Below are positions 8,155-8,466 of a DNA stretch of 64,000 bases, in pieces (within the stretch, counting starts at the first letter, position 1; the number at the start of each line of letters is the position of its first letter). The position numbers and the translations under genes are program-made. The stretch is from a virus. The notes under the pieces were generated by a model that was not told the DNA's origin, ran no database searches, and saw only the letters and a program-made list of their open reading frames with translations. The stretch spans positions 20,036 to 84,035 of IMG/VR virus record IMGVR_UViG_3300029258_001506. One strand, 5' to 3'.

Positions 8155-8466
8155 CGAGACTGAGCAGCGGCAGGCTGCAGAACGTCTGCCGAAAGCGTGG
8201 GAAACTGGACGCGGTTTCCGGTGAGGTAGCGACCCTGAAGTCTGGGAGCGATGCTCGCAGTCCCCGACCCGCCCTGGTTGCGGTAGGGATAGAAGCGGTC
8301 AAGAAAACCAAAAGCCGGGACCTGGGAGCAGTACGGTGCTTACCGCAACGACCGGGGCAACCCGCGAGCTGGGCCGAAGCCGAAAGGCGGGAAAGCCGGT
8401 GTAGCTGACGACGCGCCTGTAAACGAAGCGCCTGGGAAGGTACAGCGATGTCGCTGCTCAGTCTCG
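8155..8466 (+). ncRNA. unknown ~312-nt structured RNA
   Basis: 18-bp terminal helix 8155-8172/8449-8466 (one G-U); 10-bp inner helix 8277-8286/8340-8349; GNRA hairpins; intergenic. Confidence 0.75.

Follow-up and report, generated by a model that had tools for sequence, protein, structure and literature searches.

The 396-nt gap at 8096–8491 of an uncultured phage sequence, located on the + strand between the small genes P0001 and P0002, is interpreted here, tentatively, as a lineage-specific module for intercistronic processing that acts at the RNA level within an early transcription unit of the host-polymerase type. The sequence is the IMG/VR virus record IMGVR_UViG_3300029258_001506, 98,187 bp in length, of which bases 20036–84035 form the window, that is, the whole 64,000-nt stretch analyzed; positions are those of the window and lie on the + strand unless the genome (the full record) or the other strand is named. 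The center of the gap is an element at 8142–8479, whose two arms, 8142–8172 and 8449–8479, are complementary over 31 positions and close off an insert of 276 nt (8173–8448), and a tRNA-like minihelix at 8095–8137 stands before it. The first-pass annotation had delimited the element as 8155–8466 and regarded it as a highly structured RNA of about 312 nt, possibly a new large phage non-coding RNA (ncRNA) or ribozyme. What was observed is the closing helix, with its exceptional score and the bias of its wobbles to one strand, the non-coding character of the gap, and the absence of the element at the equivalent positions of relatives; we infer transcription, cleavage by RNase III and RNase P, and an effect on expression.

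The closing helix was originally described as 18 bp long (8155–8172/8449–8466) with one G·U pair (G8170·T8451). This pairing is present, but the helix was measured too short, since it extends over 31 bp (8142–8172/8449–8479) and comprises 27 Watson–Crick pairs, three G·U pairs (T8145·G8476, T8154·G8467, and G8170·T8451), and one A/G mismatch at 8151/8470. The duplex has a calculated free energy of −51 kcal/mol, with pair probabilities of about 1.0 in a 416-nt context, and its score of 27 is the highest of any inverted repeat in the 98,187-bp genome, compared with at most 17.5 in 10 Markov shuffles. The 5′ arm contains TTGACA at 8146–8151; the 3′ arm buries an alternative ATG at 8468 and ends directly before the Shine–Dalgarno (SD) tract that begins at 8480. 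When the whole element is folded, the + strand reaches a minimum free energy of −142 kcal/mol (z −3.7) and the − strand −126 kcal/mol (z −2.8).

The wobble pairs of the helix carry information about the level at which it is maintained. All three are G·U on the + strand and would be A·C on the − strand, and none is A·C on the + strand. The inverted repeat that ranks second in the genome is a hairpin of 28 bp around a 29-nt loop, at genome positions 18674–18758, some 1.3 kb before the window begins; it likewise has three G·U pairs and no A·C pair on the + strand, together with one mismatch, and it lies in the 5′ leader of a 334-aa ORFan, ending just before its SD and ATG (18773). Taking both stems together, six of the six wobbles are G·U on the transcribed strand (p ~1/64 if transitions are random), and both long stems stop just short of an SD sequence. 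Because every wobble reads as G·U on the transcribed strand, an RNA-level helix is favored, and there is moderate evidence from the sequence that both long helices are maintained as RNA. The gap around the second stem (genome 18329–18771) itself folds with a z of −5.4. The 334-aa ORFan behind this stem is a probable replication-initiator gene; it contains the iteron-like repeats ACACCGTGT, GACGGTGT, and GTCGACAC at genome 19285–19365, and this region is probably the replication origin.

The gap does not encode a recognizable protein. No periodicity of GC content at third codon positions (GC3) is found at 8100–8450, while the flanking genes show values of 0.85–0.95, and the placement of the element in a gap between genes, as first annotated, holds. 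Of the three + strand frames across 8096–8491, two are interrupted by stop codons, and the product of the third is Arg/Ser-rich and off-frame. Hidden coding was considered and rejected on account of the missing GC3 periodicity, the lack of a hydrophobic small-toxin open reading frame (ORF), and the broken or off-frame reading frames; a tag-like peptide was found at the end of no insert frame.

The equivalent positions of relatives lack the element. P0002 has 11 remote homologues with 40–51% identity in a full HMMER scan, and their upstream gap is at most 66 nt in four distinct contexts (five contigs), with neighbors unlike anything in this phage. P0001 has a sole homologue (P0132, 46% identity), and the gene behind this homologue overlaps it, leaving no gap. 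Since the homologues sit tight against their neighbors, the 396-nt gap is understood as an insertion specific to this lineage that separates two small genes, each mobile on its own. Look-alikes of P0001 and P0002 from a protein language model gave no useful information. Exact-protein look-ups recovered five other contigs, from other samples and assemblers, that span the element wholly or partly and are 100% identical across it; because these independent contigs carry the same copy, the element is not an assembly artefact. An ENA contig matches window 8291–9098 exactly and then continues at its positions 809–1028 into an unrelated low-GC tail, which is most likely an assembly chimera.

Searches for relatives of the element itself gave null results throughout. 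The first-pass annotation had failed to place it in a known RNA family, and this agrees with Rfam, where the 64-kb window gave no match at gathering thresholds. The families of Rfam 15 were covered, among them RNase P, transfer-messenger RNA (tmRNA), 6S, signal recognition particle RNA, group I/II introns, GOLLD, ROOL, HEARO, OLE, raiA, riboswitches, and small ribozymes, and the element fits none of them; at E ≤ 10, the sole match in the region 8142–8479 was to a eukaryotic long non-coding RNA model, at 9.6 bits and attributable to chance, and at E ≤ 1, the whole-window search gave nothing in the element. No relatives were found among phages and plasmids by blastn, nor in 80 viral loci anchored on the neighboring ATPase by nhmmer and blastn, and none of the 12 ATPase-anchored loci inspected has a comparable long-range stem. 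Exact-pattern scans, which would miss diverged copies, gave no match in IMG/VR for either the arm pair or an interior 22-mer, no match for the arm pair in 185,579 species genomes (GTDB), and three chance matches for the arm pair in JGI metagenomes, which have nothing in common beyond the pattern. Covariation is unusable because no relative was found and the independent copies are identical.

The minihelix at 8095–8137, which the first-pass annotation had not mentioned, consists of the acceptor strands ACCGCGG (8095–8101) and ACGCGGT (8130–8136), an 11-nt linker, the T-arm CCGGG-TTCGAAT-CCCGG (8113–8129), and the discriminator A8137. It starts on the final base of the upstream stop codon. Six of the seven acceptor pairs form, with one G/A mismatch, and CCA is not encoded; the T-arm is canonical, with a 5-bp T-stem and a 7-nt loop of the TTCRANY type. 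By cmscan, the minihelix aligns end to end with the mascRNA model at 21.2 bits (E 0.096), below the gathering score of 42.5. A T-arm scan found only two elements on the genome + strand that combine a canonical T-arm with a matching acceptor. A search of 185,579 species genomes (GTDB) for the T-arm/acceptor 22-mer gave no match, in tRNA genes or elsewhere. ARAGORN reports no tRNA or tmRNA gene in the window or in the whole genome, and only at a 90% threshold does it give a 93-nt "tRNA-Arg(cct)" at 8045–8137, among 12 low-score calls. The earlier comparison with the GOLLD and ROOL RNAs, which occur near tRNAs, is thus not borne out: the only tRNA-like structure beside the element is the minihelix, which may have decayed from a tRNA or may function as a punctuation mark.

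A second tRNA-like element was observed at window 20000–20085, with a 7-bp acceptor (GGCGACG/CGTCGCC), the T-arm GAGGG-TTCGACT-CCCTC, and a small branched domain at the position of tmRNA helix 2, which gives it a tmRNA-like topology. It aligns end to end with the Rfam tmRNA model at 18.8 bits (E 0.0015), below gathering, and is not called by ARAGORN. It appears to be an insertion that interrupts the usual 5′ leader of the unit whose promoter lies at 19964, and an SD-led ATG follows it at 20121.

The transcription unit around the gap begins with a promoter cassette at 7415–7479, composed of an A/T-rich UP-like tract, TTGACA (7445–7450), a 17-nt spacer, TG-n-CACACT (7465–7473), and a leader that starts with ATGATG at 7480. 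This is the "promoter 2" to which the element was first assigned, and that assignment is supported in so far as the cassette is the second window copy of a repeated unit. The cassette, 85–100 nt in length, has at least eight near-identical + strand copies in the window (6042, 7464, 17184, 18743, 19964, 21198, 22909, and 25418); its conserved, CA-rich leader begins ATGATGAGGGAC or ATGATGAACGAA, and an SD-led start codon follows about 35 nt later in each copy. Its putative promoter function is deduced from consensus alone, and the cassette pattern gave no match in IMG/VR. The first cistron, P0004 (7480–7791; GC3 0.85–0.90), has no Pfam or PHROG match, and its true start is likely the SD-led ATG near 7516, after the CA-rich leader. 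The second cistron, P0001 (7826–8095; stop TAA at 8093–8095), encodes an 89-aa acidic ORFan. After the gap, the third cistron, P0002 (8492–8767), encodes a 91-aa acidic protein from a small gene family scattered over unrelated phage contexts, and it has its own SD tract, AAGGAGAGAG (8480–8489), with GGAG at 8482–8485, 6 nt before the ATG at 8492; the tract is mostly unpaired in the ensemble. At 8771–8798, a near-consensus sigma-70-type promoter (TTGTCA, 16 nt, TG-n-TATAAT; 11 of 12 consensus matches) marks the end of this unit and the start of the ATPase/radical-SAM unit. No intrinsic terminators are predicted on the + strand in the first 20 kb of the window. In the 5′ leader that follows the 8771 promoter, at 8804–8868, a 10-bp pairing of TGCGATGATC (8804–8813) with GATCATCGCA (8859–8868) was noted ahead of the ATPase start at 8908.

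On this arrangement, the following mechanism is proposed. Transcription from the cassette promoter at 7445 would bring together arms that are 276 nt apart, which would pair into the near-perfect 31-bp duplex. The host double-strand-specific RNase III would then cut this duplex; a host enzyme would act, since a six-frame search of the whole genome found no phage-encoded RNase III. Cleavage would separate the third cistron from the two upstream cistrons, leave the third cistron (8492–8767) with a short 5′ stub directly before a free SD, and release the enclosed RNA of about 290–310 nt, while the minihelix could serve as an RNase P/Z site or as a 3′-end protector of the upstream mRNA. The insert itself would have no sequence-specific function and would be the passenger of a cis element for processing or insulation. 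It has been reported that RNase III cuts double-stranded RNA, releases rRNAs from long-range stems, and has several sites in lambda, T7, and T3 (PMC5371410), and that RNase P cleaves model hairpins made of an acceptor stem and a T-stem-loop, as well as phage RNAs and polycistronic mRNAs (PMC11143913). The properties of an RNase III duplex, namely accessibility, about two helical turns, a length of at least about 20 bp, and location on the transcribed strand, are all found in the predicted 31-bp helix. The proposal is further supported by the 3′ arm, which ends right before the SD and leaves it unpaired in the ensemble, and by the position of the module, which has a copy of the repeated promoter cassette before it and a consensus promoter after it.

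Several points weigh against the processing module. The minihelix is weakly supported, being below the Rfam gathering score and a minor fold, with an ensemble probability of 0.05–0.3. The homologues of P0002 and P0001 elsewhere do without such an element, which therefore does not belong to either gene as a conserved leader or trailer. A mild enrichment of GNRA-capped hairpins, confined to the + strand, hints at internal RNA structure in the insert. Finally, a simple hairpin such as the second stem with its 29-nt loop would suffice for processing, and because the 276-nt insert is not explained by a processing site, the idea that the insert is a functional RNA stays alive.

According to that idea, which is possible though doubtful, the insert would be matured by cuts in the closing helix into a new stable, trans-acting ncRNA or ribozyme early in infection, for example, a decoy, a sponge, or a protein-binding RNA, with the stem and the tRNA-like element acting only as maturation signals as in rRNA operons. 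The layout is indeed rRNA-like, with a long-range stem around an RNA and a tRNA-like element before it; the insert is larger than a processing site needs; the + strand fold of the element is more stable than that of the − strand; and the element was apparently acquired as an independent unit between unrelated genes, as phage tRNA and ncRNA genes often are. The structures that were first annotated were confirmed: a second long-range helix between GTTGCGGTAG (8277–8286) and TTACCGCAAC (8340–8349), with nine Watson–Crick pairs and one G·U, and the local hairpins GGAAAC/GTTTCC, GGCAG/CTGCC, CGGG-GCAA-CCCG, and GCC-GAAA-GGC are all present. Of these, GGCAG/CTGCC and the top of the long helix are competing, mutually exclusive pairings. 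The insert contains the 8277–8286/8340–8349 helix, the GGAAACUG/CGGUUUCC hairpin at 8200–8219, and GNRA-capped hairpins at 8353–8364 and 8379–8388. GNRA-capped hairpins number four in the 338 nt of the element, two of them marginal, compared with 0.94 per kb on the + strand genome-wide, and none is present on the − strand.

The folding energies set these structures in proportion. The description of the element as highly structured is true of the whole, whose z of −3.7 is owed to the closing helix, and not of the interior, which folds to −109 kcal/mol compared with −107 ± 4.6 kcal/mol for dinucleotide shuffles (z −0.41), with 67 of 200 shuffles at least as stable. The thirds of the element give z values of −0.6, −1.8, and −0.4; the central domain 8268–8362 reaches −1.84, and the hairpin 8196–8224 reaches −3.0 but was chosen post hoc, and these two values speak for a functional RNA. 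Folding energy relative to shuffles is a weak ncRNA criterion, which many genuine RNAs do not pass. The insert shows no enrichment of unpaired A and equals the genome + strand in base composition, and the ordinary interior stability and the lack of unpaired-A enrichment fit a spacer role. A stable ncRNA is further disfavored by the absence of an Rfam match even at E 10, by the lack of relatives and thus of covariation evidence in phages, plasmids, IMG/VR, JGI metagenomes, and GTDB genomes, and by the absence of an encoded partner protein, since six-frame searches of the whole genome found no reverse transcriptase (RVT_1), TROVE/Ro, RtcB, or CCA-adding enzyme. Complementarity of the insert to the rest of the phage genome, which would point to antisense targets, is not above chance, and an internal duplication of the insert is not significant (p ~0.03). 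With an ordinary interior, no homologue for covariation, and identical independent copies, the first-pass proposal of a large structured ncRNA or ribozyme is not sustained. A more specific version is more doubtful still: the insert would be a new class of stable phage RNA with rRNA-like maturation, by RNase III in the stem and RNase P at the tRNA-like mark, which early in infection would have a trans-acting role, for example, as a decoy or sponge that captures a host defense or RNA-binding protein, and the 20000–20085 element would share this strategy of tRNA mimicry.

It is unlikely that the 338-bp unit 8142–8479 originated as a miniature inverted-repeat transposable element (MITE), that is, as a relic of a DNA element whose 31-bp terminal inverted repeats pair in the transcript by chance. 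The size of 338 bp, the terminal inverted repeats with 87% identity, the non-coding interior of ordinary folding energy, and the lineage-specific gap, uninterrupted beside the P0001 and P0002 homologues, are what such a relic would look like. A target-site duplication, which the first-pass annotation had named as the sign of a MITE, is missing, since the flanks, TATCGG before TTCTTTGAC on the left and AAGGAG after GTCAAGGAA on the right, share no direct repeat; nor does the genome contain a second copy of the arms at up to three mismatches per 16-mer. In addition, the arm-pair scans in IMG/VR, JGI metagenomes, and species genomes yielded nothing beyond chance, no transposase, integrase, invertase, or recombinase was found in the phage genome, and the three wobble-type mismatches between the arms are all G·U on the transcribed strand, which points to an RNA-level helix.

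A cis element that works by structure only, free of any nuclease, is improbable. The stable helix beside the SD would then be a 5′ or intercistronic stabilizer or insulator that may block exonucleases, set standby access for ribosomes, or hide the ATG at 8468, and in this way tune translation of 8492–8767. The 3′ arm, which ends right at the unpaired SD and buries this ATG, is in keeping with such a role, and the second long stem of the genome is placed likewise relative to its SD and ATG. However, bacterial RNase III is expected to cut an accessible duplex of 20 bp or more, so that an intact 31-bp helix is unlikely to persist (PMC5371410), and the P0002 homologues elsewhere have no such leader.

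A DNA-level palindrome without an RNA role, whether an invertible promoter, a pair of protein-binding operators, or a replication or recombination site that forms a cruciform, is highly improbable: inverted repeats around about 280 bp do resemble invertons, each arm carries an inward-facing −35-like hexamer (TTGACA and TTGACC), and the element lies in a region of replication and recombination genes, but no matching −10 follows either hexamer, six-frame searches of the whole genome found no serine or tyrosine recombinase, a single orientation occurs in all independent assemblies, the likely origin iterons are elsewhere (genome 19285–19365), and the wobble bias favors RNA.

Other candidates were examined and rejected. 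An inverton in the strict sense is contradicted by the missing recombinase and by the same orientation in all independent contigs; a retron, a diversity-generating retroelement, or another ncRNA linked to a reverse transcriptase by the lack of RVT_1 in six frames of the whole genome; and a Y RNA of the YrlA type by the lack of a TROVE or RtcB gene, the location of the tRNA-like element outside the stem, and the absence of a Y_RNA match. A phage attachment site (attP) on a tRNA 3′ end was rejected in view of the missing tyrosine/serine recombinase and the absence of the minihelix 22-mer from 185,579 species genomes. A split gene or intron was rejected because the homologues of the flanking ORFs occur in separate, unrelated contexts, the downstream ORF has its own SD, and no group I/II model matches.

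The phage that carries the element has a genome with direct terminal repeats and 64% GC, and nearly all its genes are on the + strand. Its large terminase has less than 27% identity to that of any deposited phage; the closest relatives of the AAA_23/SbcC-like ATPase adjoining the element, among 5.8 billion proteins, reach at most 48% identity; and most of the phage proteins scanned have no Pfam family. Judged from its sequence, the lineage is very isolated and divergent. A bacterial host is indicated by the moderately acidic proteome and by the SD motifs on most genes. Recognizable genes near the element encode a DnaB helicase, a YqaJ-like exonuclease, the ATPase, a radical-SAM protein, and an SNF2 helicase, and thus belong to replication and recombination.

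Further observations were made along the genome. Directly after the terminal repeat, at genome 14–5512 (+), an 1,832-aa ORF is followed by ORFs of 710 and 809 aa, none of which has a Pfam match. The radical-SAM protein (window 10209–10946, +) has a weak QueE-like PHROG match, and a PAPS-reductase-domain protein is encoded at 17548–18663 (+); together, they may belong to a nucleotide or DNA modification pathway. At window 36350–38450, an island of about 2 kb has a lower GC content (55–57% compared with 64%) and was possibly acquired horizontally; its ORFs, such as 37394–38371, have a weak GC3 signal and were overlooked by the GC3-based gene caller. Two apparent intergenic gaps, window 16814–17199 and genome 13933–14363, fold better than shuffles (z −3.0 and −2.85; 30 shuffles each), and they may hold missed small genes.

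The element is a well-defined curiosity of a single genome and not the discovery of a new ribozyme. If the processing module is real, a divergent uncultured phage of 98 kb organizes its early operon with processing signals in the style of rRNA operons; the processing paradigm of T7 and lambda would be extended to a distant lineage, and the element would be a clean substrate for the study of long-range RNase III sites. If the insert were instead a stable RNA with a function of its own, it would represent a new class of phage ncRNA.

Among known systems, the large phage-associated ncRNAs GOLLD, ROOL, HEARO/omega RNA, raiA, and OLE resemble the element in being non-coding regions of hundreds of nucleotides in phages with several GNRA hairpins. 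They differ from it in that the element, which is much smaller than GOLLD, ROOL, and OLE, matches nothing by cmscan even at E 10, has no neighboring tRNA genes, lacks covariation support, and has an interior of ordinary stability. Correia elements of Neisseria are MITEs whose terminal repeats form hairpins cut by RNase III. Like them, the phage element is a short non-coding unit between inverted repeats (about 26–31 bp in the two systems) that carry promoter-like hexamers and would pair in the transcript; unlike Correia elements, it is present in a single copy, has no target-site duplication, and has no relatives in the collections searched. Like mascRNA and similar tRNA-like punctuation (MALAT1, MEN-beta), the predicted minihelix has an acceptor and a T-arm, lacks D and anticodon arms, and stands where an upstream functional RNA has its 3′ end, and acceptor/T-arm hairpins of this kind are model substrates of RNase P (PMC11143913). 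However, it scores 21 bits against a gathering score of 42.5, the families concerned are eukaryotic and no homology is claimed, and it has a G/A acceptor pair, no CCA, and the status of a minor ensemble fold.

The closest likenesses are to RNase III sites. The early sites of phages (T7 R0.3–R1.3, T3, the lambda N leader, cIII, and sib) are, like the present element, intercistronic in early polycistronic RNA of the host polymerase, which is predicted here, with the stem directly upstream of the next ribosome-binding site and with an expected separation of cistrons and altered stability or translation. They are compact hairpins of about 50–60 nt, often with an internal loop, whereas the element combines a 31-bp helix with a 276-nt "loop" and has no sequence similarity to them. 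In the RNase III stems of rRNA operons, complementary sequences hundreds of nucleotides apart likewise pair over more than 20 bp and thereby loop out the RNA between them, and a tRNA or tRNA-like element lies in the adjoining spacer, so that host RNase III and RNase P would act jointly; in contrast to these operons, the phage element encloses 276 nt that are not rRNA, stands between protein-coding cistrons, and is cleaved only by prediction. The element matches no described family, and in kind it resembles known RNase III-type processing architecture, with the unusual feature that a phage mRNA would combine a long-range stem with a large insert and with tRNA-like punctuation.

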